Below, in pieces: positions 6,975 to 41,903 of a stretch of 42,054 nucleotides of DNA (positions are counted from its first letter, which is position 1; every line of letters starts with the position of its first letter). A program made the position numbers and the translations under genes. Source of the stretch: a virus; the IMG/VR virus record IMGVR_UViG_3300005515_000015, one strand, 5' to 3'. The notes beneath the pieces were generated by a model. It saw nothing but the letters and a program-made list of their open reading frames with translations, searched no databases and was not told the DNA's origin.

Positions 6975-7040
6975 CGAAGTTCCCCAAGCAAGGTGCGAGA
7001 AGAACCGGCGTCCTCCTCCCCGCCGGGTGCCTTGCTGCCT

Positions 7041-7089
7041 GGCAGGGGCGCGACATCTCCTCCCGTCGCGCTCCTGCCGCTTCTTTTCT
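7041..7089 (+). terminator. Strong intrinsic terminator downstream of the Cro-like gene (tR1-like)
   Basis: GGCAGGGGCGCGAC (7041-7054) pairs with GTCGCGCTCCTGCC (7065-7078): 14 bp including one G-U, 10-nt loop, followed by GCTTCTTTTCT. Confidence 0.7.
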
Positions 7090-7203
7090 GTCTGCCTACC
7101 CATGTGGCCCTCCGTGACGATGGGCTGAACCTACGCGCGGGCCGCTCGCGCTTCACTGAATCCTTATCCGAATTTCTTTCCTTGCTTTTCGCGGGGTGTT
7201 TCC

Positions 7204-7659
7204 GTGCGTTTTGATGAACCTGTCATGTTCCTGAAGGGTGCGACCGAGGCGAGCTTCAAGCTCGGCGGCGGTCTCACCTCGTTTGCCCTGCTGGCGCGTG
7301 TCGGTGTCTCGACGCTCTCGAAATACGCTTCGGTCAGCGAGGAATTCCGCGACAACGTGATCCCGGTCGATATCGCCGTCGAGGCAGACCGGCGGGCAGG
7401 CTCACCCATCATCATCGGCGAGGCGGCGCGGCAGCTCGGTTTCGACTTGGTGCCGTCGGGTGGAGCGGAGGCGGCAAAGCCGGTGACCGAGGCGGATGCA
7501 CACCGGGTTCTCTATGAGGCGACAGACGTTTCGCGCGCGATCCTCGATGCGAAGGCTGACGGCAAGATTGACGCGCTGGAGCGCAAGAGGATCGCCCAGG
7601 AAGCGCGTGAGGCAATCCGCGCGTTGGAGCAGGTGCTGGCCGGACTGGAGGAGGGGTGA
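7204..7659 (+). CDS. Early regulatory-type protein, 151 aa (possibly CII/CP76-like, tentative)
   Basis: GTG 7204 or ATG 7225. Central SKYASVSE... HTH-like segment and C-terminal coiled coil. Sits at the CII position after the terminator. Confidence 0.5.
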   Translation: MRFDEPVMFLKGATEASFKLGGGLTSFALLARVGVSTLSKYASVSEEFRDNVIPVDIAVEADRRAGSPIIIGEAARQLGFDLVPSGGAEAAKPVTEADAHRVLYEATDVSRAILDAKADGKIDALERKRIAQEAREAIRALEQVLAGLEEG

Positions 7660-7901
7660 TGTTTTCCACCCTCGACGTCCGGATCTCGGCCGAGGCTCGC
7701 GCCTTCCTTCGAACCGTCCGCCATGCGGGCGGTTCTCTGCATGTCGAGCAGGAATGGCAAGTCGACCTGGCGAAGGAATGCGCCCGTAACGGTCTGCTGG
7801 GTTTTGCCGGCGGCTCGATCGGCCGCGTGCCGCCGGTCTCTCGCGTCGAATTGACCGGTAAAGCCTACGCCTATCTCGACCGCATGATGAGGGCGCACTG
7901 A
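7656..7901 (+). CDS. Hypothetical protein, 81 aa
   Basis: Start overlaps the upstream stop. No domain recognised. Confidence 0.55.
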   Translation: MMFSTLDVRISAEARAFLRTVRHAGGSLHVEQEWQVDLAKECARNGLLGFAGGSIGRVPPVSRVELTGKAYAYLDRMMRAH

Positions 7902-31198: not shown

Positions 31199-33883
31199 AT
31201 GTCTCTTTTCACGAAGACGGCAAGCGACACCTTTGCGCCCTATGATATCGCCGGCACTCCGCGGCCGATCGTGCCTCAAGACGCGCAGGTCTGGGGCAGC
31301 GAAGTAGAGCGGGTGTTGCTGTCTTTCCAGGCTGGCGGCGGGCTGATCTATTCCTCCAGAGACGGTCTTTACGCTGACCTGGGCAAACCCGCTCACGCTA
31401 TGGCTTGGGTGCTGGGCGATCCCATCGTGGATCGAAACGGGGTCTATGAGAAGATTGGTGCCAGTGGCACTGGTAGCTGGCTGCGCCTCGGGGACTTGCC
31501 CTATTCGTTTATCATCGCGACCGACGTTGGCGCCGGCACGGCGAACGCGATCCAGGTGACGACCACCATTCCGGTGAGTAGCTCCGCGCTCATTTGGTCG
31601 AACGTCTTCGAGGCGAACACCGCCTCTCCGGTGACGATTGCCTTCAATGGTGGCGCGGCGCTGACGATCAAGACCAATAGCGGGGCTGACGTCGTGGCTG
31701 GCGGCCTCGTCGCCGGGATGATCCTGCTCGGCATCGTCAGCGGCTCGACATTCCGTCTCCTCAGCGATCAGGCGAGTGCAGCATTGCTTGCTGCGGTGGA
31801 GGCTGCGAAGGATGCAGCCGAAGCGGCGCGCGACGAGGCGCAGGCTGCGGCGGCCATCGCAAATGGCACCGTTCCGGTGGTTAACCGGGCCGCCCTCAGG
31901 GCGCTCGATACCGCAGTGAAGAAGGCCGCGATCCTTTATGGTGAAGGCGGCCGCAATGGCGATTTCGCGTGGGATGGATCGAACCTTTCGGCGATCCTTT
32001 CGCCACTCTCCGCTACCAGCTCCGCTGTCAACAGCTCCACCGAGACGATCACAGCGAACAATCACGGCCTTCAGACGGGGCAGGCCGTCTATCCGACTAC
32101 AAGTGCGAATGGTCTCACGGCCGAGACCTTCTATTATGTAATCCGTGTTGACGCGAACAACTTCAAACTCGCGGCGTCCTATGTCGATGCGGTCGCCAGC
32201 ACGGCGTTCAACCTCACCGGCACGACGAACTTTACGGTCAAGCTCTATATCGATCCGCTGGAAATCCTCTACGTCGTCCCGAACGGCAAGGCTCGCGACG
32301 GCTCGCAAGGGGCGTGGAAGCGCGTCTATGACGGGGCGGTGCAGGTAGTTTGGGCGGGTGTCGATGTTCCACTCGAAGCGGTAGTGGCGGCTTGTACAGC
32401 GGTCGCGATCTCATCGACGCACCTTTCGGCCGGCCGCCTGTCTTTCTTGTTCAAGGATGGCATCACCCTAAACTCCGGCGTGACCATTCCCAATGCACAG
32501 ATCTGGGATGGCTACGACGCCGGCAATGGGCTGGGCATATCGTTCGCGGCATCGGTCGGAACCTGTGTCACTGTCATCGGTTCTGGCGCCGCTCTTCGCG
32601 GCTTTGATATGAAGCAAGTCGGCACGCCGACGTCGTCGACGGGTGTGCAGGTCGGTAATGGCGAACAGGGCTATGCGCCGGTCCTCCGGGATTTCGTCGT
32701 TCGCGGTTTTTCCACGAACATCAAGCTTCGCTCCAACGTCGTGACGAAGTTGGACAATGTGACGTCGGTTGATGCAAAGGATTATCACTTCGTTATCGAA
32801 AATGTCGCGCATCCAGACAGCGGCGACTGGACCCTCTCGGGGGTTACTTATTCATCTTCGGCGGCTCGGTTCACCGGGTATATCAGCGGAACGACACTGA
32901 CAGTGATGTCTGCATCCGGGGGTGTTCTGGAGGTTGGCCAGCACGTCAGCGGTGCGGGCGTAGCCGATGGCACAAAAATCACGGCCCTCGGCACAGGCGT
33001 CGGAGGAACCGGCACCTACTCGGTCAGTCCATCACAAACTGTCGCATCAGCCGTAGCTCCCGCAAGCTTTGGCTCCGGCGCGAAAGCGGGCGTTTATTAC
33101 CGGAATTCTGGCGGGGGTAAGATTGTGGCCATGAAGGGCCTCGGCGCCCAGATCGGCCTGTATCTTTCCATCCCGGACGTTCCCGGCGCTCCTGGTGGCG
33201 GGGTCACTCAGGATTTGCAGATCGTCGGTTCTTCCTTTGAGAACCAATCCGTCGCCGGCATGAAGTTCGAGCGCACCACTGGTTCCACCACCGCCGCGTT
33301 CGGTTTGATCACTGTGGTCGGGTCAGAATTTGCGGGCCATCCGATTAGCATTTGGTTCGGTGTCGGGATTACTGGCTCCTTCGTGGGAGGGAATGCCCAC
33401 GGTTCGGGCATCGATGTGCCCGTGCAGATCGAAAACGGTGCGACCAACATCGTTGTCGGTCTCAGCTCGTTCCAGAGTGCGGAATACATTAGGGATAACA
33501 GGAACAACTTCGACGAGACTGGATACCTAGATCGTCGCGACACCTGGTCGATCAATTCTGGTAGCAATTTGGTGTGGAACACCGCGTTCCAGGTCCAGAT
33601 TGGTCGCCACGGTGGCGGGATCGTCGACGTCATCCTTGAAGGTCTTGTCCAGGGTGCGGACTCGTTCGTGGTGTATCGCAAGCTGAGCATCCGCTACAAC
33701 GGAACCTCGCTCTCGGTTGTCACCGTCGCTACCTCGAATGACGGCGCGGCAATCGGCTTCCAAGTTGCCACTTCCGGTGATACAGCCAGTATCCAGTATC
33801 GCTTAGGTGGTTCGGGCACGCAGTTGCAGGGAACTGCGACTATTGTGCCCGACGGAAAATTCAAACGGGTTGCGAGAGGCTAA
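31199..33883 (+). CDS. Tail fibre / tailspike with probable beta-helix distal domain
   Basis: 894 aa. Coiled-coil [28 protein letters not shown]. Distal repetitive beta-rich segments. GC falls sharply in the distal half. Confidence 0.8.
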
Positions 33884-33884
33884 C

Positions 33885-34859
33885 GTGCAGTCAGCGGGAC
33901 GTCTATCGGCCGGAGGGCTTTCAGCCTCTCAAGTTGCCTGGATCTTTCAACTTCTCTTGGAACGCGAGCCTTCCCAGGACGAAGTTGAAGCGAGGCTCGA
34001 TCGCTATGCCGACGTGCGCCAGGTTCGAAACGAGATCATCCGCTCGCCCGAGTATGTGATAAAGAATGGCGGGAACGTCGCGTATCGTGAGGCGCAGAAC
34101 GTCTTTGCTGACCTGGCGCCCTATGGCGTTAACGGGCTCCTTTACGCCAACCTATCCGACTACATTGGGCTAAGCATCGTCAATGCTCAATACGAGCTGG
34201 AGGAGGTGGCTCTTGTCAGGGAACGGGTGAAGCCGGGCTACACCTTCGTGGATGTAGGTGCGAACATCGGCCTCTTCACCATCCTTGCGAGCGATCTCGT
34301 CTGGTCAGGGGGTAAGGTTTTTGCTTTTGAGCCCGTGCCGGCCACGCTCCAGTATCTCAGGAAGAGTATTGCCGCAAACCGGTTCTGTCTGAACGTCACT
34401 GCCACACAAGCCATTGTTGCCGATCGGTCCTGTGATGACTTGGAGATCGCGTACCAGCCCATCGAGGAAGGATCCGGTAGTTCGGGGGGCTCGTTCATCG
34501 TTGATAAACGTGACGAGCTTCCTCCGCATCTGAAGCGCGAGGCGATCAGGGCCGAGCCGTTGGATAAGCTGGTCCCTGAAGGCGAGAAGGTTCACTTCAT
34601 TAAGGTCGACATCGAGGGCGCTGAGCCATTGGCCATGAAAGGAGCGGAGCGTATTCTTAGCGCGTACTCGCCGCTCGTCATGTCAGAGGTGCACCCAGCG
34701 CAACTGAAAGCGGTCTCGAAGATCGATTGGCGCGGCTATTTTGATCTCATGAAGGGGTATGGTTACAGCCCCTTCTTTTTCCAGGGTGGCGAAATCACTG
34801 ACGAGGTTCAGCACCTCGATGACGGCAACGTCTATAGCGTCGTCTTCGCCAAGAAGTAG
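33885..34859 (+). CDS. FkbM-family methyltransferase with DUF4214-like N-terminal segment
   Basis: FVDVGANIGLFT...FAFEPVP...IKVDIEGAEPLAMKGA are FkbM motifs. GTG 33885 after GAGAGG. Confidence 0.8.
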   Translation: MQSAGRLSAGGLSASQVAWIFQLLLEREPSQDEVEARLDRYADVRQVRNEIIRSPEYVIKNGGNVAYREAQNVFADLAPYGVNGLLYANLSDYIGLSIVNAQYELEEVALVRERVKPGYTFVDVGANIGLFTILASDLVWSGGKVFAFEPVPATLQYLRKSIAANRFCLNVTATQAIVADRSCDDLEIAYQPIEEGSGSSGGSFIVDKRDELPPHLKREAIRAEPLDKLVPEGEKVHFIKVDIEGAEPLAMKGAERILSAYSPLVMSEVHPAQLKAVSKIDWRGYFDLMKGYGYSPFFFQGGEITDEVQHLDDGNVYSVVFAKK

Positions 34860-35086: not shown

Positions 35087-35206
35087 AGCCTAACATACAA
35101 GGCCTGCTGCCAAGCGGGCTCATTGGCACGGGAACCCGCTTTCCCGTCGCCCTCAAAGCTCGTTGTCTGAGCTGATCCTTCCCATCGTAAAAACTTGGAG
35201 CATTCG

Positions 35207-36181
35207 ATGAGCGTCATCACCGCGCAGCAAATCCGCTCGGCCGCGAAAGGGCCAGTTAACGAAAGCAATCTCAATTCCGTCCTGGTCGCGCTCGATCGCT
35301 ACGGCGACATGTTCGGACTCGATAGGCCGCATCGCCTGGTTCCCTACTTCTCGCAGCTCGGGCACGAAAGCTCTGACTTCCGTTTTGATCGCGAGATCTG
35401 GGGACCGACACCGGCGCAGCAGCGCTATGACATCCGCGTGGATCTCGGCAACACACCGGAGCGCGATGGCGACGGAAAGAAGTATGCCGGCCGAACGGCC
35501 ATGCAGCTGACCGGAAAGTACAATTACCGGCTCTTCAGGGACTGGTGCAGACGGCAGGGGCTTAACTGCCCGGACTTCGTCGCTGATCCGGATGCCGTCA
35601 ATCGCGATCCGTGGGAAGGGATCGTGCCGATCTTCTACTGGAGTGAGCGTGACCTCAACCAATGGGCCGACCAGGGTGACGTCGAGACGCTGACGAAAAA
35701 GATCAACGGCGGCAAGAACGGCTTTGCCGATCGTGTCGACCGATATGCGCGCCTGGCGCTAGTCGTGCTCGGCTACCGGCCGGACAACGTCATGCAGTTT
35801 CAGTCGGACAATCGCCTTGATGTCGACGGCGATGTTGGACCGAAGACGCGTGCGGCGCTGCACAAGGCGCTGGTGGCGCTTGTTCCCGGGGAGGCGGCGA
35901 AGCCGGAGATCAAGCTCGCGCCGGTAACCGAAGAAAAGCCGGTCCCGGTTCCAGTGCCGGTGACGCCGCCGAGCCTTGATGCGCCTTGGTGGAAGTCGAA
36001 AGAGGTCATTGTGCCGGCCGTCAGCGGCGGCGGTGCGTCTATCCTGACCGCGATCGGCGGCATTCCCTGGCAGAACCTGCTGATCGTCCTCATTGCTCTC
36101 GTCGGCATCGCCGGCTTCCTCTACTGGCGGAAGAACGCCGACCGGAAGGCCGTGGCGAAACAGGTCGAGAGGATGGCCTGA
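35207..36181 (+). CDS. Endolysin: GH19 (chitinase-like) domain + PG_binding_1 + C-terminal transmembrane segment(s)
   Basis: YFSQLGHESSDF...YAGRTAMQLTGKYNY (GH19). LDVDGDVGPKTRAAL (PG binding). C-terminal ILTAIGGIPWQNLLIVLIALVGIAGFLYW. Confidence 0.85.
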   Translation: MSVITAQQIRSAAKGPVNESNLNSVLVALDRYGDMFGLDRPHRLVPYFSQLGHESSDFRFDREIWGPTPAQQRYDIRVDLGNTPERDGDGKKYAGRTAMQLTGKYNYRLFRDWCRRQGLNCPDFVADPDAVNRDPWEGIVPIFYWSERDLNQWADQGDVETLTKKINGGKNGFADRVDRYARLALVVLGYRPDNVMQFQSDNRLDVDGDVGPKTRAALHKALVALVPGEAAKPEIKLAPVTEEKPVPVPVPVTPPSLDAPWWKSKEVIVPAVSGGGASILTAIGGIPWQNLLIVLIALVGIAGFLYWRKNADRKAVAKQVERMA

Positions 36182-36465
36182 TGTTCAGCCGAATTTCTCT
36201 GGCTGCCGGCGCAGTTGCCGGCGGCCTCGTCGTCTTCCTCGCCATGCAGGCAGTAAACGCCATTTGGCTACTGCCTGCGGCGAGGAGCGAAGGCAGGGCG
36301 GCCGAACGCGTCGAAGTCCAGGCCGCCACCACGAAAGCAATTGGAGAATTGACCAATGCAGCGGATCGCGCTCGCGTTAACCGTCGCCTGTGCCGTGAGC
36401 GCGGCTGGGTGTACCTCAACGGCGCGGGTCAATGCGTCGAAAGAGCAACTGAACCTGGCGGCTAG
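36181..36465 (+). CDS. i-spanin-like protein (N-terminal TM), 94 aa
   Basis: ISLAAGAVAGGLVVFLAMQAV is a TM segment. ATG overlaps the endolysin TGA. The lipoprotein ORF starts inside this gene. Confidence 0.65.
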   Translation: MFSRISLAAGAVAGGLVVFLAMQAVNAIWLLPAARSEGRAAERVEVQAATTKAIGELTNAADRARVNRRLCRERGWVYLNGAGQCVERATEPGG

Positions 36466-36607
36466 GGCGGTGGTCGGGGCTTCGCTTATCGGCGCGCGAG
36501 GGGCGACGCCGGCCGACCAAGATAAGATCGACGACACAGTCGCGGGGCTATGCGGCGCCCGCGTCTGGACTAAGGAAGAGTGCAGCGCCCACGACGCTGC
36601 GCAGTGA
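36356..36607 (+). CDS. o-spanin-like lipoprotein, 83 aa
   Basis: Signal peptide with lipobox: MQRIALALTVACAVSAAGC. Overlaps the 3' end of the i-spanin gene in another frame. Confidence 0.7.
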   Translation: MQRIALALTVACAVSAAGCTSTARVNASKEQLNLAARAVVGASLIGARGATPADQDKIDDTVAGLCGARVWTKEECSAHDAAQ

Positions 36608-36657
36608 TCAGCAATTTTGCATTCGAGGGGCAAAGGGTGAGCAACGGGAACGAAGAG

Positions 36658-37026
36658 ATGGTCAGCGTTCGAGCACCAGCCTGGAAATGGGAATGGAACC
36701 TCAACACACTCGTGATCGTACTTGGGTTCATCGGCGGCATTGCCGCTTGGGGGATGACCTGGGAGCGGTTGACGGCCAATCAACAGGTGCACGCCGAGAA
36801 CATCGACAAGCTCGACAAGCGTGTCACCACCCTCGAGGCGTCGATGCGCTTGCTCGACAACCACGAACTCCGCATCACAGGCGTCGAGAAGCAGGCGGCC
36901 GAGGCGGCCACGTCGATGCGCGCCGTGGAAAACACGTTGAACAGCTTATCGGTCGATACCCGCGTCATGCGCGAGATCTTGCAGCGAATCGAGGCTGGGC
37001 AGCGCGAAGGTCAGCTTCGACGCTGA
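36658..37026 (+). CDS. Membrane-anchored coiled-coil protein, 122 aa (lysis-associated; holin role unproven)
   Basis: One TM segment, LVIVLGFIGGIAAWGMTW, then a long coiled coil. Start ATG 36658 (alternative GTG 36637). Confidence 0.5.
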   Translation: MVSVRAPAWKWEWNLNTLVIVLGFIGGIAAWGMTWERLTANQQVHAENIDKLDKRVTTLEASMRLLDNHELRITGVEKQAAEAATSMRAVENTLNSLSVDTRVMREILQRIEAGQREGQLRR

Positions 37027-37048
37027 ACAGCGTACGAATCGACTGCGG

Positions 37049-37894
37049 TTAGCTGAATACATTGGCGACGTGCTCGATTGTGAAATCTTCCCCAATCCGA
37101 TCTCGCAACCAAGCAATGATCCCCTTCGATACGTGGTCGTCGATTACAAAAAGGTTTGCTTCGTTTCGTCCGATCGGACTTAACTCGACGCCCACCACAT
37201 CCTTAAGGAACGGCCGAATGGCCGTCTGAACATCTTTGTCGGGTGCCGTATTCTTTGATTTCACCCTAAATTTCTGCATCGGTTGTTCGTGTCGAGATGA
37301 ACGTGGAGTGGTGCCAGCTATAGCAAACTCCAGCCGTTCGAGCCGGTTCGCGATCAAGTCTACTTCCTGTAGAAGTACCTGATCGGTCGGGGAGGCGTTT
37401 TGTGCGATTTCAAACTTCCCCCGGGAGAAGGTCACTGGGTTGTCGATCTTGTGGTCAGGATCGATTGCTATAGCGACTGCCTCTTTGAGCGCCTCGCGGG
37501 CTCTTTTTAGGTCGCGAGGCCATTTGCGCTGGAATTTGATTGACCGGAAGGACGCGATATCGAAGGGAATCCTTTGTCCTTCAAGGTGCATATGAATTAT
37601 GGGCTTTTGAACCGTGTGGCGAATTCCGATTTCGTAAAATGCATTTGGGTTCAGAGTCGTGAGGTCGGCAATCACTAGTTCCGCCTCGAGAAGCGCGGTA
37701 ATAACTTGCGCATCAATGCGGCCGGGATCGGAGATTTTGTCGGCGCGCTTTACGTCAAACTCCGTAAAGCTCTGCCCAAAAACTGGCAGAATGATTTCCT
37801 CCAAGAGCCAATCGGCGTGGTTCCGATCGTCGCTGTCGTCGTCTCCGATCGGTCCAACTACGAAGCAGAGTTTCTTTTTTGCCGACCTTGCCAC
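37049..37894 (-). CDS. NDT/TIR-like Rossmannoid N-domain protein with unknown C-terminal domain (candidate effector)
   Basis: KKLCFVVGPIGDDDSDD...AELVIADLTTLNPNAFYEIGIRHTVQKPIIHM. GTG 37894 after AGGGGG (alternative TTG 37963, giving 304 aa). GC about 48-50%. Confidence 0.6.
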   Translation of the reverse strand: MARSAKKKLCFVVGPIGDDDSDDRNHADWLLEEIILPVFGQSFTEFDVKRADKISDPGRIDAQVITALLEAELVIADLTTLNPNAFYEIGIRHTVQKPIIHMHLEGQRIPFDIASFRSIKFQRKWPRDLKRAREALKEAVAIAIDPDHKIDNPVTFSRGKFEIAQNASPTDQVLLQEVDLIANRLERLEFAIAGTTPRSSRHEQPMQKFRVKSKNTAPDKDVQTAIRPFLKDVVGVELSPIGRNEANLFVIDDHVSKGIIAWLRDRIGEDFTIEHVANVFS

Positions 37895-37994
37895 CTTGTT
37901 TCGCCCCCTGTCATCCAAAGTTGCAGCTACAAATACAGAGTGTGCATGGTTGTGCAATATCAATAGATGACCGTTGCAACCGACCAGTGACGAG

Positions 37995-38243
37995 TCAGCG
38001 GTAGATTTCTAGGAACATAGAGCTGAGCTGCGGAGAGTTGATCCCGCATCGGTCAAATTTGCTGGCCCTCACATACCTTGGGCAGGTCATGCCTAGGCTG
38101 GCAATAAAGGTCGCGATCGGCATGTCGGAGCCCCATTTCTCGATCAGCCGCGAAACCTTGTAGCGGCCCTTGCGGTCGCAGTTGGCGCACTCGATCTCCA
38201 TGAAAGGCTCTTTGAATTCTCGAAGTGTCCGATGGGTCGACAT
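37995..38243 (-). CDS. Small Cys4 zinc-ribbon-like protein, 82 aa
   Basis: ATG 38243 preceded by AGGAGG. ECANCDRKGRY...MTCPRY...FDRCG. The longer ORF-track start would run through the promoter. Confidence 0.65.
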   Translation of the reverse strand: MSTHRTLREFKEPFMEIECANCDRKGRYKVSRLIEKWGSDMPIATFIASLGMTCPRYVRASKFDRCGINSPQLSSMFLEIYR

Positions 38244-38259
38244 ATTGCGCACCTCCTTC

Positions 38260-38293
38260 GTTCTCAATATGTTCTCAAGAGTGAAAGAGTCAA
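38260..38293 (-). promoter_or_regulatory. Sigma-70-type promoter overlapped by a GAAC-N7-GAAC (LexA/SOS-box-like) direct repeat
   Basis: Minus strand: TTGACT (38293-38288), 16-nt spacer, CATATT (38271-38266). Plus strand: GTTCTCAA-TAT-GTTCTCAA, i.e. GTTC(38260-63)-N7-GTTC(38271-74). Confidence 0.5.
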
Positions 38294-38308
38294 CGTGTCC
38301 TGATTTCG

Positions 38309-38602
38309 ATGACAGAGCCGTATCAGCCCCGCTACCAATGGCGCCGCACGCAACTCGATGAGCACGATCCGCCAAGCGATCTCGATTGGCTCGGCTTTGA
38401 CGGCGTGGGCTACATCGGTCGCATCAGAAAAGAGACCGGCGGACCGACCGCCGGCCGGTGGCACTGGGCAGGATCAACCCCTCGCACCTTCAGGGGCGCT
38501 CCGCCGACGCCGAACCAAGGCTATTGCGATACCGCGCGCGAAGCTACCGAGATGGCTGAAACCTATTGGGACTGGTGCCTCGCGCGAATGAAGGGCGAGT
38601 GA
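38309..38602 (+). CDS. Trp-rich hypothetical protein, 97 aa
   Basis: Natural composition. GYIGRIRKETGGPTAGRWHWAGS...YWDWCLARM. Directly upstream of the ligase gene and co-oriented with it. Confidence 0.6.
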   Translation: MTEPYQPRYQWRRTQLDEHDPPSDLDWLGFDGVGYIGRIRKETGGPTAGRWHWAGSTPRTFRGAPPTPNQGYCDTAREATEMAETYWDWCLARMKGE

Positions 38603-38634
38603 GACGTTTTCGCCGTTCTGTGCGTTAATGCGGA

Positions 38635-39606
38635 ATGGCTAAAACACTTACGGAGAAATCACCGCCAGCGCCGCCGGCAGATCCGATGCCCGCCCGCGTC
38701 GACCCATGTCTTGCGACCCTGGTTGATACACCTCCGAAAGGGCCGAACTGGGCCTTCGAAGTGAAATGGGATGGCTATCGCGCCGCGCTCCATATCGAGC
38801 CCGGGCGCGTCCGCGTCCTCACGCGCGGCGGCCATGATTGGACCGATCGCTTTCCCTCCATTGCAGCAGAGGCGCCCCATCTCGGGGCACAATCCGCGAT
38901 CATCGACGGCGAGGCCGTTGTGCTCGACGAGAAGGGCCGATCCGACTTCGGCCTGCTGCAACGCGCCCTCGGGCGCCGGCCGGGCGAGCATGGCCCCGGT
39001 GAAATCCTCCTCCTCGCTTTCGATCTTCTCTACCTCGACGGTCGCGACCTGCGCAGGCTGCCGCAGTCCGAGCGCCGGCAGTTGCTCGTCCAGCTTCTCG
39101 CCGGCCGCGACGGGCCAATCCGCCTTTCCGAAGAGGTCGACGCGGATGGGGCGGAGTTCTTCCGTGTTGCGTGCGAGTTGGGACTCGAGGGGATTATCGC
39201 CAAGCGGCGGGACATGCCCTATCGCATCGGGCGCCGGCCGGAGTGGCTGAAGATCAAATGCGCGCGTCGCGACACTTTCGTGATCGTAGGTTTTCAGCCG
39301 TCGACCGTGCCTGGCGCGATCGGCCGGCTGCTGCTGGCGGCCAAAGAAGGAGAGGGGCTTGTCTATGTCGGAGGCGTTGGGACGGGCTGGAGCGCCAAGG
39401 TGTCGCGCGATCTACGGGAGTTGCTGGAGGCGATCGTGACGCCTACGCCGGCGGTGAAACTGTCGCGGAAGGGTGCGGTGTTTATAGAGCCGGTGCTGGT
39501 CGCTGATGTAGAATACCGAGCGTGGACGCAGGATAAGAGGCTGCGGCATCCGTCGTTCAAAGAGGTGCGAAAGGCTGATGAGAATGCGCACGTCTTCGAG
39601 GTTTAG
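38635..39606 (+). CDS. ATP-dependent DNA ligase (LigD ligase-domain type, stand-alone)
   Basis: Motif I EVKWDGYR, III IIDGEAVV, IIIa FDLLYLDG, IV EGIIAKR, V WLKIK, plus an OB domain. Confidence 0.9.
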   Translation: MAKTLTEKSPPAPPADPMPARVDPCLATLVDTPPKGPNWAFEVKWDGYRAALHIEPGRVRVLTRGGHDWTDRFPSIAAEAPHLGAQSAIIDGEAVVLDEKGRSDFGLLQRALGRRPGEHGPGEILLLAFDLLYLDGRDLRRLPQSERRQLLVQLLAGRDGPIRLSEEVDADGAEFFRVACELGLEGIIAKRRDMPYRIGRRPEWLKIKCARRDTFVIVGFQPSTVPGAIGRLLLAAKEGEGLVYVGGVGTGWSAKVSRDLRELLEAIVTPTPAVKLSRKGAVFIEPVLVADVEYRAWTQDKRLRHPSFKEVRKADENAHVFEV

Positions 39607-39636
39607 CGCCCCAGGGTTCGGCTACTTCTTGGGGCG
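39607..39636. terminator. Weak stem-loop between convergent genes
   Basis: CGCCCCA (39607-13) pairs with TGGGGCG (39630-36) across a 16-nt loop. Confidence 0.3.
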
Positions 39637-40020
39637 GTTGACCACGACAAATGCGGATACGACGGATCCTATCACTCCGCCGCCCAAGATCACCGCGGCC
39701 CATTGTGCGCCTACCGATATTGCATATCCGCATAGGCCAAGTGCCACGAGGACGAAAAGGAAGGCTAGGATTTTACCGAGGATGGCATCAAAGCCTGTTA
39801 CGAATAGATCTCGCGCTTCAAGCCGATGCCGATGCTGGGTTTCTGCTTCCCACGCCGAGAATATTCTCTCTGCCCCATTATCAACTACATGGTTGAAATC
39901 TTCGAGGATAGACGGCGGGGGGAGCGGTCCCGACCATTCGGCCGCAACAACGGCTCGCGCGGCCGCCCGCTCGTCTGCATCAGCTGTAGGGGTTGGGCGT
40001 CTAGCGGGTGGTTTTTTCAC
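39622..40020 (-). CDS. DUF2335-family membrane protein
   Basis: WSGPLPPPSILEDFNHVVDNGAERIFSAWEAETQHRH followed by two TM segments. Confidence 0.75.
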   Translation of the reverse strand: MKKPPARRPTPTADADERAAARAVVAAEWSGPLPPPSILEDFNHVVDNGAERIFSAWEAETQHRHRLEARDLFVTGFDAILGKILAFLFVLVALGLCGYAISVGAQWAAVILGGGVIGSVVSAFVVVNRPKK

Positions 40021-40249
40021 GCTGCATTACTTCGGCTGCAGCCTTTCTCATATCCATACCGATGCGAACAAAATCGCCTCTGAGCGCCTTGTTGGAGTTT
40101 TCCACCTTCGCGCGCATGGTAGGCTGATGGGGCGTTGAGATTGTCAGGAGGGAAGCGAGACCAGTCACAACGCCGTTCGCGATGCCGCGCACGCGGCGCT
40201 TCGTCGTCAATTTCGTGTGGTAAACTGTTTTCTTCATCGTTCTCACCAT
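40001..40249 (-). CDS. Small basic hypothetical protein, 82 aa
   Basis: GAGG RBS before ATG 40249. Its 3' end overlaps the DUF2335 gene start by 20 nt. Confidence 0.5.
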   Translation of the reverse strand: MVRTMKKTVYHTKLTTKRRVRGIANGVVTGLASLLTISTPHQPTMRAKVENSNKALRGDFVRIGMDMRKAAAEVMQREKTTR

Positions 40250-40435
40250 GTCAGCCTCATATACCGACAGAACGTAAAGGGCAAATTAAGGTTCATTCAC
40301 ACTTTGGTCAATCGTCGCTTTAGGCACGCGACATTGCGTGACGCGCCTTGCGCGGGCGTTACGTTCCGCGCCCACATAGTTTTGAATATCGCTCATGTCA
40401 ATAATTGGGGCTTGTTTCGCGAGGCATGACCGAAG

Positions 40436-41770
40436 TCATGCGCCGGCAAGATCTGGCCATGCGAACATGATGCCTTGTAGGAATGCTTGCCGGCGCTTCA
40501 TCTCGGCGCCGTCGCCGTATCGGGGGCGCCCGAACTCGTGCCCCATCAAATCGGCCTGCATCCGATCCGAGCAGTTGGCATTTTCGATACGGTCCTGGAA
40601 GCTATGGCGCAGCGAGTAGACGGTATGATCGTCTGTCGGCATCAGCCCGTTGTTTCGCAGGACCTTGTTGATCAGTGCCGACGCTGAGTCGGCGTTGTCC
40701 TGGTATTTTGCGAACCCCTGCGGCCTTTGTCGCATCGCCCATAGCGACACGCCGACGAGCGGCACGCGACGGATTGAGTAGTCGCTTTTCTGCCGCCGAT
40801 CGCTGCGCTCCGCGACCTCTATGTGCGGCACCTCGTCATCGAGGCGAATGTCCTGAGGTCTGAGGTTGCAGATTTCGCCGAGCCGCGCGCCGGTCTCAAC
40901 CATCGTGTAGACGACCAGGCGGGCATCCGCGTCGAGCATATCCATGGCGCCCGGCAGCAGGATCTTGCCTGTAATCCATTCGCCCGCGAATGGAGGCCTG
41001 CTGCGGCCCTTGGTGGCGTTCGTTTCCTTGATCCGGGCCTTTTCCCATACCGCGTGGTAATTCGTGTGCAGGGCGGCGTCTATGGGCGTGAGCATGCCCA
41101 TGATGTCGCTGAAGGATCGATTAGCAGTGTCGGCCTTCAGGCCCTCGTCGATTATCTTGTCGGTCCACCACTGGCGGAACTTCAGCACGTCCGGTCGCGC
41201 GATCGCACCGAGCTCCAGGTCTCCCATCACATCGACCGCGTAGGTGATCGCTCGCTCTCGCGAGATCTTGTGCTTCCTCAGCTGATTCTTCGACATCCCC
41301 GTAAGTCCGGCGGCGTTGTGCTGCTCGTAGAGCGTCCAGACGTTGCTGAGGCGCGGCGAGGGTTCGTCGACGGTTCCGGCAACGGCGTCGACGATTGTTT
41401 GCGAGCGATCGAGATTCTCTGCGACGACGGCCAGGCGCCTCTCGATCTCGTCTAGCGGAAGCGCTGCGACATCGGCGGCTGGCCGGTAGGTGAAGCCGAG
41501 CGACTGGGCAAGCTTGACTGCGGCTTCGTACCGCGCAAATGCAGTTTCGTTGTCGTTGCCGGTTAGGAGTGCGCGCCAAAGGCTCTCCGCGGCGTCATGG
41601 ACCGACTGCGCTTTTTCCAGCGCGTCCTTCAAAATCTTCGTTTTCAGGGACTGTTTGACGTGCGTGCGGTTGTCGAGGTGGGCAACTTCGGTCGGCACGC
41701 GTCGATAATAGCGGTAAATTCCGCTGACCGGATGCTTTACGACATAACGGGAGAGATCGTCAGATCCCAT
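40436..41770 (-). CDS. int: Tyrosine recombinase / phage integrase
   Basis: C-terminal catalytic region ARLGEICNLR...YSLRHSF...LMGHE...RYGDG. Internal ATG 41770 preferred over the ORF-track start at 41842. Confidence 0.9.
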   Translation of the reverse strand: MGSDDLSRYVVKHPVSGIYRYYRRVPTEVAHLDNRTHVKQSLKTKILKDALEKAQSVHDAAESLWRALLTGNDNETAFARYEAAVKLAQSLGFTYRPAADVAALPLDEIERRLAVVAENLDRSQTIVDAVAGTVDEPSPRLSNVWTLYEQHNAAGLTGMSKNQLRKHKISRERAITYAVDVMGDLELGAIARPDVLKFRQWWTDKIIDEGLKADTANRSFSDIMGMLTPIDAALHTNYHAVWEKARIKETNATKGRSRPPFAGEWITGKILLPGAMDMLDADARLVVYTMVETGARLGEICNLRPQDIRLDDEVPHIEVAERSDRRQKSDYSIRRVPLVGVSLWAMRQRPQGFAKYQDNADSASALINKVLRNNGLMPTDDHTVYSLRHSFQDRIENANCSDRMQADLMGHEFGRPRYGDGAEMKRRQAFLQGIMFAWPDLAGA

Positions 41771-41800
41771 GGGATTTGCGCCTTTTCGTTCCCCTGTGGT

Positions 41801-41832
41801 CCGAAAAGTAGCCAAAATGTAACCAAAAAAGC
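41801..41832 (+). promoter_or_regulatory. Three tandem CC(A/G)AAA(A/T)(G/A)(T/G)(A/C) decamers with 11-bp period (candidate integrase arm-type sites)
   Basis: CCGAAAAGTA 41801-10, CCAAAATGTA 41812-21, CCAAAAAAGC 41823-32, between the int start and the repeat. Confidence 0.45.
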
Positions 41833-41903
41833 AAGGGTACAAAGCGGGCGGCGAGGGCGCTTGCGTTTAAGTGTGCTTGTAAGCCGTTGAAATCCCTAAA
41901 TGA

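Follow-up and report, generated by a model that had tools for sequence, protein, structure and literature searches.

The DNA considered here is a viral stretch of 42,054 nucleotides (IMG/VR record IMGVR_UViG_3300005515_000015), which we call the window and to which all coordinates refer. ORF calling over the whole window places two minus-strand open reading frames (ORFs) at 37049-38243, and our main concern is the second of these, gene 2, which codes for a candidate single-protein defence effector with an unusually variable C-terminal domain. An earlier note on this DNA had joined it with its neighbour, gene 1, into a two-gene operon of zinc-ribbon and NDT/TIR-like proteins. The two genes are as follows:

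37049-37894, minus strand: gene 2, 281 aa, GTG start (stop codon counted in the coordinates)
37995-38243, minus strand: gene 1, 82 aa, ATG start, seven bases after an AGGAGG at 38252-38257

The frame of gene 2 is open from 37049 to 37963, and the GTG at 37894 is favoured as its start because the homologues begin with MAK..KKxCFVVGPIG in the alignment. With this start the gap between the genes is 100 bp, and with a TTG start it is 31 bp; on the common orientation, the coordinates and both of these gaps, the earlier note was correct.

In the AlphaFold2 (AF2) model of the gene 2 protein (predicted local distance difference test score, pLDDT, 86.8), there are three parts, the first of which bears a signature motif:

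37460-37894, minus strand: N-terminal domain (N-domain) of catalytic type, residues 1-145, modelled as five beta-alpha units in a flavodoxin-like/NDT-like arrangement
37616-37651, minus strand: signature motif N82-P-N-A-F-Y-E88-I-G-I-R-H93, with the codon of E88, the putative catalytic Glu, at 37631-37633
37316-37519, minus strand: helical, coiled-coil-like stalk, residues 126-193, modelled as helices 126-143, 153-166 and 169-193
37055-37282, minus strand: ferredoxin-like C-terminal domain (C-domain), residues 205-280, modelled as beta-alpha-beta-beta-alpha-beta; hypervariable, the proposed sensor

The motifs CFVVGPIG and LVIADLTxLNPNxFYExGxRH hardly vary among 82 relatives drawn from many phyla: N82 and N84 are conserved in 100% of the sequences, E88 in 98% and R92/H93 in 96-97%, and the conserved positions as a whole comprise C10, F11, P15, G17, R24, D28, R50, D52, G58, D77, N82, N84, Y87, E88, R92, H93, P110-F-D112 and R117. 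The PADLOC model PDLC00733 ('Effector, TIR') matches the N-domain with an E-value of 2e-11, and it also matches nine of ten distant relatives of gene 2. Foldseek comparison with the PDB returned, at E-values from 1e-4 to 5e-3, nucleoside 2-deoxyribosyltransferases (NDT; 8qc0), human DNPH1 (8rpt), the CMP N-glycosidase BcmB (4jen), the entry 7o62 and the TIR domains of MyD88 and SARM1, and the best viral match in BFVD (E 2e-13) is annotated 'CMP/hydroxymethyl CMP hydrolase'. When aligned by hhalign, the segment LVIADLT..NPNAFYEIG of gene 2 falls on VVVAEVT..SLGVGYELG of DNPH1, which pairs E88 with the catalytic E104 (E 8e-4, probability 25%). The DNPH1 sequence used here is numbered consistently with the mutants Y24F and D80A/N named in the PDB. 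These profile and model comparisons place the N-domain among the NDT/DNPH1/TIR-like folds, with E88 at the predicted position of the superfamily's catalytic nucleophile, and so bear out what the earlier note had read from the YE.G glutamate and the strand pattern; the profile and structure searches it had proposed as a check return the NDT/TIR-like fold together with its Glu.

A receiver domain was also considered for this part of the protein, which has a flavodoxin-like fold and an Asp ending strand 3, and was rejected: there is no Response_reg match, and the NDT, DNPH1 and TIR matches are better. Pfam family PF05014 has no match in the gene 2 protein, which falls below the curated threshold, and matches 7 of 66 relatives weakly (best E 0.0099; one reaches 17.5 bits where the cutoff is 28.8). 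Among PHROGs, gene 2 is matched by phrog_3634 (E 2e-44) and by phrog_10872, both of unknown function.

The C-terminal half, of which the earlier note could recognise nothing, is not featureless, consisting of the helical stalk and the ferredoxin-like domain; what holds of that claim is that the matches are generic. A profile search of the whole family against PDB sequences gave weak coiled-coil matches to the stalk and none to the N-domain. The C-domain, modelled alone, reached a pLDDT of 84, and the attempt to assign it a specific sensor type by separate modelling and search ended in generic folds, from which no ligand or partner can be named. Its most striking property is its turnover. Among 249 close relatives (N-domain identity 42-100%, median 55%), 238 have tails of 50 aa or more, and these tails sort into 154 clusters without mutual BLAST similarity; the tail type of gene 2 itself (about 90 aa) is common to only 11. 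By these comparisons, relatives that are otherwise close are seen to have exchanged the C-domain for unrelated sequences.

In some relatives the tail is a GerE/LuxR helix-turn-helix (HTH), sigma-70 region 4 or PcrA/UvrD Tudor domain, and such endings would suit a protein quite different from a defence effector: a regulator or signalling protein, in which the N-domain, ligand-binding or receiver-like, receives the input and the variable C-terminus gives the output, or the toxin of an addiction module. Foldseek also returns response regulators and flavodoxin-like proteins, one clade of relatives (P0035) adjoins a MarR gene at a conserved chromosomal locus, and toxin-antitoxin genes are frequent neighbours. 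We nevertheless consider either role unlikely. No Response_reg or receiver match was obtained at E <= 0.1 in 66 members; the conserved motif fits the catalytic segment of NDT/DNPH1 and a defence-effector model; and there is no conserved antitoxin-like neighbour.

Against a reading of gene 2 as one half of a system stands the company that each gene keeps. Gene 1 occurs in seven other prophage contexts (L001, L002, L003, L097, L098, L099 and L100), always in the same region near lysis genes and a ligase or integrase, and gene 2 is present in none of them. Conversely, tblastn found gene 1 at none of 83 loci carrying relatives of gene 2, and further contexts annotated with Pfam, which bring the total to more than 90 loci, contained no small zinc-ribbon neighbour. 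No other partner gene emerged: all-against-all clustering of the ORFs that lie no more than about 4 kb from 80 relatives of gene 2 yielded only the family itself and antisense shadow ORFs, and when the nearest flanking ORFs, 144 in number, were scanned with Pfam and PADLOC, no family was common to more than two loci. (Statements on neighbours taken from these batch scans hold among the top families that they list.)

The gene pair as the earlier note conceived it would be a two-component defence or induction module, with the zinc-ribbon protein as sensor, regulator or antitoxin, possibly under SOS control. The genes do point the same way, 100 bp apart; the gap holds no terminator-like site, there is one promoter-like site upstream of gene 1 at which a GAAC-N7-GAAC motif lies, and a few contigs of this phage have the exact pair again. 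Against this, all seven other contexts of gene 1 lack gene 2, the 83 loci with gene 2 relatives lack gene 1 and have no conserved neighbour of any kind, the GC content at third codon positions (GC3) of gene 1 resembles that of the backbone and that of gene 2 does not, gene 1 has been truncated by an insertion, and the count of the GAAC motif is within chance. Because synteny is absent in both directions, codon usage differs and gene 1 is truncated by the insertion, we reject the pair: on the genomes compared, the two are neither a conserved pair nor a system, gene 2 is a stand-alone gene, and the module, largely refuted by synteny, is very improbable.

The arrangement in the window can be traced to a single event:

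37027-38012: insertion of 986 bp relative to related prophages, holding gene 2, the 100 bp upstream of gene 2 and new last codons of gene 1

The segment is recognised as an insertion because its flanks in the window, 36323-37026 and 38013-38228, directly adjoin each other in two related prophages (L001 and L002; blastn). Gene 1 has 82 aa here and 96-111 aa in its full-length homologues, and the conserved ...APFTEEY... tail is lost; the insertion of gene 2 has replaced the 3' end of gene 1 and thereby truncated its product at the C-terminus. Composition tells a similar story for one of the two genes. In 300-bp windows over 37050-38250, the GC (guanine plus cytosine) content is 50-55%, against 60-68% in the flanks, and the inserted segment, at 51.1% GC, is the lowest 986-bp window of the 42 kb (mean 61.7%, standard deviation 2.8; 0.18% of windows are as low), so that the low GC of the cassette is not a chance fluctuation. 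GC3 is 0.58 in gene 2, 0.735 in gene 1 and 0.69-0.79 in backbone genes, and the low-GC signal is gene 2's, not gene 1's. The earlier suggestion of a low-GC, acquired cassette therefore stands for gene 2, which looks horizontally acquired and recently inserted, and fails for gene 1, whose GC3 is backbone-like.

Gene 1 is a resident of this group of rhizobial prophages and unrelated to gene 2. It has only nine homologues, all in related rhizobial prophages. Its AGGAGG ribosome-binding site (RBS) and cysteine motif are as the earlier note described them, and since the four cysteines (C19, C22, C54 and C66) are invariant across all nine homologues in the alignment, a zinc-binding fold is plausible. 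Neither Pfam and NCBIfam nor PHROGs and PADLOC gave a significant match to the protein. A possible homologue in Sinorhizobium phage phi3LM21, p55, occupies the same slot, but its E-value of 11 led us to reject it.

Transcription of the inserted gene may depend in part on where it landed:

38266-38293, minus strand: promoter-like site, overlapping a GAAC-N7-GAAC at 38260-38274 and just upstream of the RBS of gene 1

Because the promoter and terminator scan found no terminator-like site between the genes and this promoter-like site lies upstream of gene 1, read-through into gene 2 may occur. Such read-through is a consequence of the landing site of the cassette and not evidence for shared function. 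Read by eye, TTGATA-N18-CTGTAT upstream of 37894 is a candidate for a promoter of gene 2's own. A terminator-like hairpin was found within the gene 2 coding sequence (37330-37346, minus strand), at chance level (3 found against 2.2 expected).

GAAC-N7-GAAC has the form of the alphaproteobacterial LexA (SOS) box, which would make 38260-38274 a candidate LexA-type operator. The direct repeat is identical in a close relative (L003) and absent from L001 and L002, and the window holds three such motifs where 1.36 are expected, a count that 15 of 100 shuffles reach and that is thus within chance. SOS control of the gene 1 promoter is a lead, not a finding. Nothing directly supports the SOS-controlled antirepressor that the earlier note had offered as an alternative, this single motif upstream of gene 1 being the only hint of SOS.

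The neighbours annotated on either side confirm the position, given in the earlier note, between the lysis genes and the integrase, and two further cargo-like genes lie near:

33807-34859, plus strand: FkbM-family methyltransferase, downstream of the tail-fibre genes; cargo-like
35195-36181: endolysin-like ORF (PG_binding_1), on one side of the gene pair
36580-37026: DUF2730/DUF1515-type ORF, lysis-associated, adjoining the gene 2 side
38309-39606, plus strand: 97-aa ORF and ATP-dependent DNA ligase (ligase 38635-39606; PF01068 and PF04679)
39622-40020, minus strand: DUF2335 membrane protein, next to the integrase; cargo-like
40436-41842: tyrosine integrase

The 97-aa ORF and ligase are transcribed away from gene 1, the two starts being only about 65 bp apart, and they adjoin gene 1 in several related prophages. 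The closest sequenced phage, phi3LM21, is 82% identical across about half of the last 12 kb and has neither gene 1 nor gene 2. When 36580-40436 is compared with L001, L003, L006, L007 and L097-L100, the interval between the DUF1515/DUF2730 gene and the ligase or integrase appears as a variable cargo slot: L001 has nothing extra there, phi3LM21 has a different 99-aa gene, L099 and L100 have a 90-aa gene after gene 1, and L006 has a TIR-caspase-TIR operon, ApeA and a homologue of gene 2. That gene 2 alone is the functional unit, acquired by insertion into this slot of a rhizobial prophage, is the best explanation of the locus.

The family to which gene 2 belongs is very large. With sequences clustered at 50% identity, a profile of 66 relatives recovers 22,399 clusters that have E <= 0.001 and 3,250 that have E <= 1e-30, and members are found in Alphaproteobacteria, Actinomycetota, Bacteroidota, Planctomycetota, Chloroflexota, Cyanobacteria and Clostridia, with one on a contig binned with an archaeal metagenome-assembled genome (Candidatus Nitrosocosmicus). 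In ten distant relatives (L047, L060, L073, L081, L082, L084, L085, L087, L088 and L089), the NDT-like domain is C-terminal in ORFs of 351-590 aa, whose N-terminal parts have no Pfam or PADLOC match and no known sensor domain; either the order of domains is reversed in these proteins or the ORFs are over-extended. Gram-positive temperate phages also have homologues, in 46 records, which are 37-40% identical to the N-domain and all annotated as hypothetical, for example:

L008 3998-4648: SA13_16 of Staphylococcus phage SA13, 40% identity (with relatives), counter-oriented within early genes
L009 3965-4744: SpyM3_0974 of Streptococcus phage 315.2, co-oriented with the repressor and integrase

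A counter-oriented position, or one linked to the repressor and integrase, is the usual site of cargo expressed during lysogeny.

Elsewhere, relatives of gene 2 are found beside known or suspected defence genes. In the related prophage L006, a homologue lies in the same slot by the DUF1515 gene, together with the TIR-caspase-TIR operon and ApeA; in L005 a homologue adjoins SIR2 and DUF87 near an integrase; in L004 one adjoins HicAB at the end of a related prophage; and on a Sinorhizobium meliloti plasmid or island (L090-L092) one lies among Phd/PIN and ParD/RES modules, DUF4145, HTH-Peptidase_M78 and a large SMC-like ATPase. The flanks of 80 loci include DUF4062 (twice), PIN, HEC-06, PDC-M19B, PDC-M04A, PDC-S35 and type I restriction-modification specificity subunits. 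Judged from such contexts, gene 2 is seen to travel as a single gene, in prophage lysogeny or cargo positions and next to toxin-antitoxin and defence genes, and the defence or abortive-infection role put forward in the earlier note is plausible. As a separate observation, downstream of the closest homologues, P0011 and P0093 (L004 7164-8861; L090-L092 8099-10785), and co-oriented with them come a small ORF, which is a DUF4145 gene in L090-L092, and then an HTH_3 plus Peptidase_M78 gene (ImmA/IrrE-like); the small ORF and the HTH_3/Peptidase_M78 gene are absent from the window.

Carriage by phages could also mean that the gene serves the phage. In that event gene 2 would be a nucleotide enzyme, acting either in counter-defence against the signals of TIR, CBASS or Pycsar systems or as a (h)mCMP/dNMP hydrolase that shapes the nucleotide pool. 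The annotations given to phage enzymes of the NDT superfamily are CMP/hmCMP hydrolase and NDT, PHROGs includes the gene 2 family, many temperate phages carry it, and the homologue in L006 stands beside a TIR-caspase operon. Most relatives, on the other hand, are chromosomal or plasmid-borne, outside phages and in diverse phyla; the phage copies occupy lysogeny or counter-oriented cargo positions and not replication or nucleotide-metabolism operons; and a constant enzyme that bears a hypervariable C-domain is what one typically finds in sensors and not in metabolism. We regard a phage-beneficial enzyme as quite unlikely.

The closest parallels to gene 2 are found among defence proteins that act alone. 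Swarozyc (KpSwz) and Evangelion (Eva01) are DUF4062 single-protein defence systems, which combine a TIR-like core with a stalk and an auxiliary sensor domain that varies, and which act as NADases or by abortive infection. Like them, gene 2 is a single gene whose N-terminal core belongs to the TIR/NDT superfamily and has a catalytic Glu (putative in gene 2) around residue 87-97; it too has a helical stalk and, at the C-terminus, a short domain of high divergence, which in those proteins senses a phage protein; like them, it is carried by mobile elements and found in defence islands. The AF2 model, the variability of the tails and the lack of a conserved neighbour all agree with this single-gene architecture of core, stalk and divergent C-domain. 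Unlike them, its core is not DUF4062 (no PF13271 match at E <= 0.1 in gene 2 or in 66 relatives), its motif is NPNxFYExGxRH and not the acidic-S-Y-T/E-Y of DUF4062, and its C-domain is modelled as ferredoxin-like where theirs is a winged helix. The resemblance to Swarozyc and Evangelion is one of analogy; gene 2 is not a member of the DUF4062 family.

The best structural matches are to the superfamily of NDT, DNPH1 (Rcl) and the CMP N-glycosidases (MilB, BcmB), with which gene 2 shares the fold and the Glu after the third strand. It differs from these enzymes in lying far below the Pfam thresholds, in having Val64 opposite D80 of DNPH1 and, as judged by eye, Cys10 at the place of Y24, in its additional stalk and variable domain, and in occurring on mobile elements rather than in metabolic contexts.

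With the TIR effectors of CBASS and Pycsar (Cap12/PycTIR-like), gene 2 shares the PDLC00733 match, and some of its relatives are so named in UniRef; unlike these effectors, it matches only positions 252-367 of the 388 in that model and has no nucleotide-sensor domain. No CBASS or Pycsar cyclase was found among the neighbours in the window (Pfam) or among the families listed for the 144 flanking ORFs of the 80 loci (Pfam, PADLOC). There is no TIR gene near gene 2 in the window that might be a Thoeris partner, and TIR neighbours of its relatives occur only in L006, convergent and in the separate TIR-caspase operon. No reverse transcriptase of a retron was found among the window neighbours or the recurrent neighbours of the 80 loci, and no search for non-coding RNA was made. 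In the neighbourhoods compared, gene 2 is without the defining partner genes of CBASS, Pycsar, Thoeris and retrons. The NDT-like effector of Retron-Eco1 (Ec86) and the CMP-hydrolase domain of ThsI from type VIII Thoeris deplete nucleotides and are inactive until triggered, but these need partners (a reverse transcriptase with multicopy single-stranded DNA, msDNA, and a TIR signal producer, respectively), and gene 2 has no conserved one.

By analogy with Swarozyc, Evangelion, the Retron-Eco1 effector and ThsI, from which we infer its activation, substrate and phenotype, gene 2 would be a prophage-carried sensor-effector in one protein that aborts infection by cleaving the N-glycosidic bond of NAD+ or nucleotides. 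The lysogen would make the protein in an inactive, probably oligomeric state, perhaps helped by read-through transcription from the gene 1 promoter. The variable C-domain would then recognise a protein or ligand derived from an infecting phage, and the stalk would transmit this signal to the N-domains, which would be re-arranged, clustered or oligomerised. The activated N-domains would cleave NAD+ or a (deoxy)nucleotide, and through its depletion phage replication would stop, by abortive infection or growth arrest. We give this reading an even chance of being right.

Several observations weigh against it. The structural matches of the N-domain are at the level of the fold, with TM-scores of about 0.3 (query) and 0.5-0.67 (target), and the hhalign probability for DNPH1 is only 25%. 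In that alignment, D80 of DNPH1 pairs with V64 of gene 2, and because D80 is not conserved, no substrate can be assigned from DNPH1; the Y24 segment lies outside the alignment, with the invariant Cys10 at that place by eye. Pfam, NCBIfam and the named defence models gave nothing above threshold, and the sole PADLOC match is to a domain and not to a system. The Foldseek matches of the C-domain are generic ferredoxin-like folds (Lrp/AsnC RAM, ACT, HMA and PII; E >= 2e-3), and because there are only these, its sensor role is one that we infer. Many neighbours of the gene in the 80 loci have ordinary metabolic roles, and the defence neighbours are those of individual loci among the families listed. 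In the P0035 clade (about 25 contigs; on the Rhizobium chromosomes L093-L095 the gene is at 7001-7858), the gene is fixed between MarR and YkuD L,D-transpeptidase genes, a site among housekeeping genes that does not look like a defence island. Among the papers searched, none characterises the gene 2 family or describes an experiment on any member.

The same evidence may be read more broadly, if more tentatively. The relatives of gene 2 could be immune receptors that each act as a single protein. Their family, very large and as yet without a name, would be built on an N-glycosidase core of the NDT/DNPH1 fold and not on a canonical TIR or DUF4062 domain; sensors of about 90 aa would be exchanged like cassettes, re-programming specificity, and the target could be a (deoxy)nucleotide and not NAD+. 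We think this possible, with somewhat less confidence than an even chance would express.

Gene 2 is a credible and testable candidate for defence, widespread and with a sensor module of unusual variability, and as such one more member of a now familiar design. The annotation of the locus is corrected in one respect, in that the neighbouring gene 1, with its plausible zinc-binding fold, is not part of the module. If the proposed function is true, a widespread family of single genes would join the branch of bacterial immunity that depletes NAD+ or nucleotides, and would supply a third sequence-distinct core, beside TIR and DUF4062, to the same design of enzyme, stalk and exchangeable sensor. The slot of rhizobial prophages between the lysis genes and the ligase or integrase would be a defence hotspot, which would bear on the phage resistance of inoculant strains, and the rapid turnover of C-domains on a conserved enzyme would offer a natural library for the evolution of phage recognition specificity.

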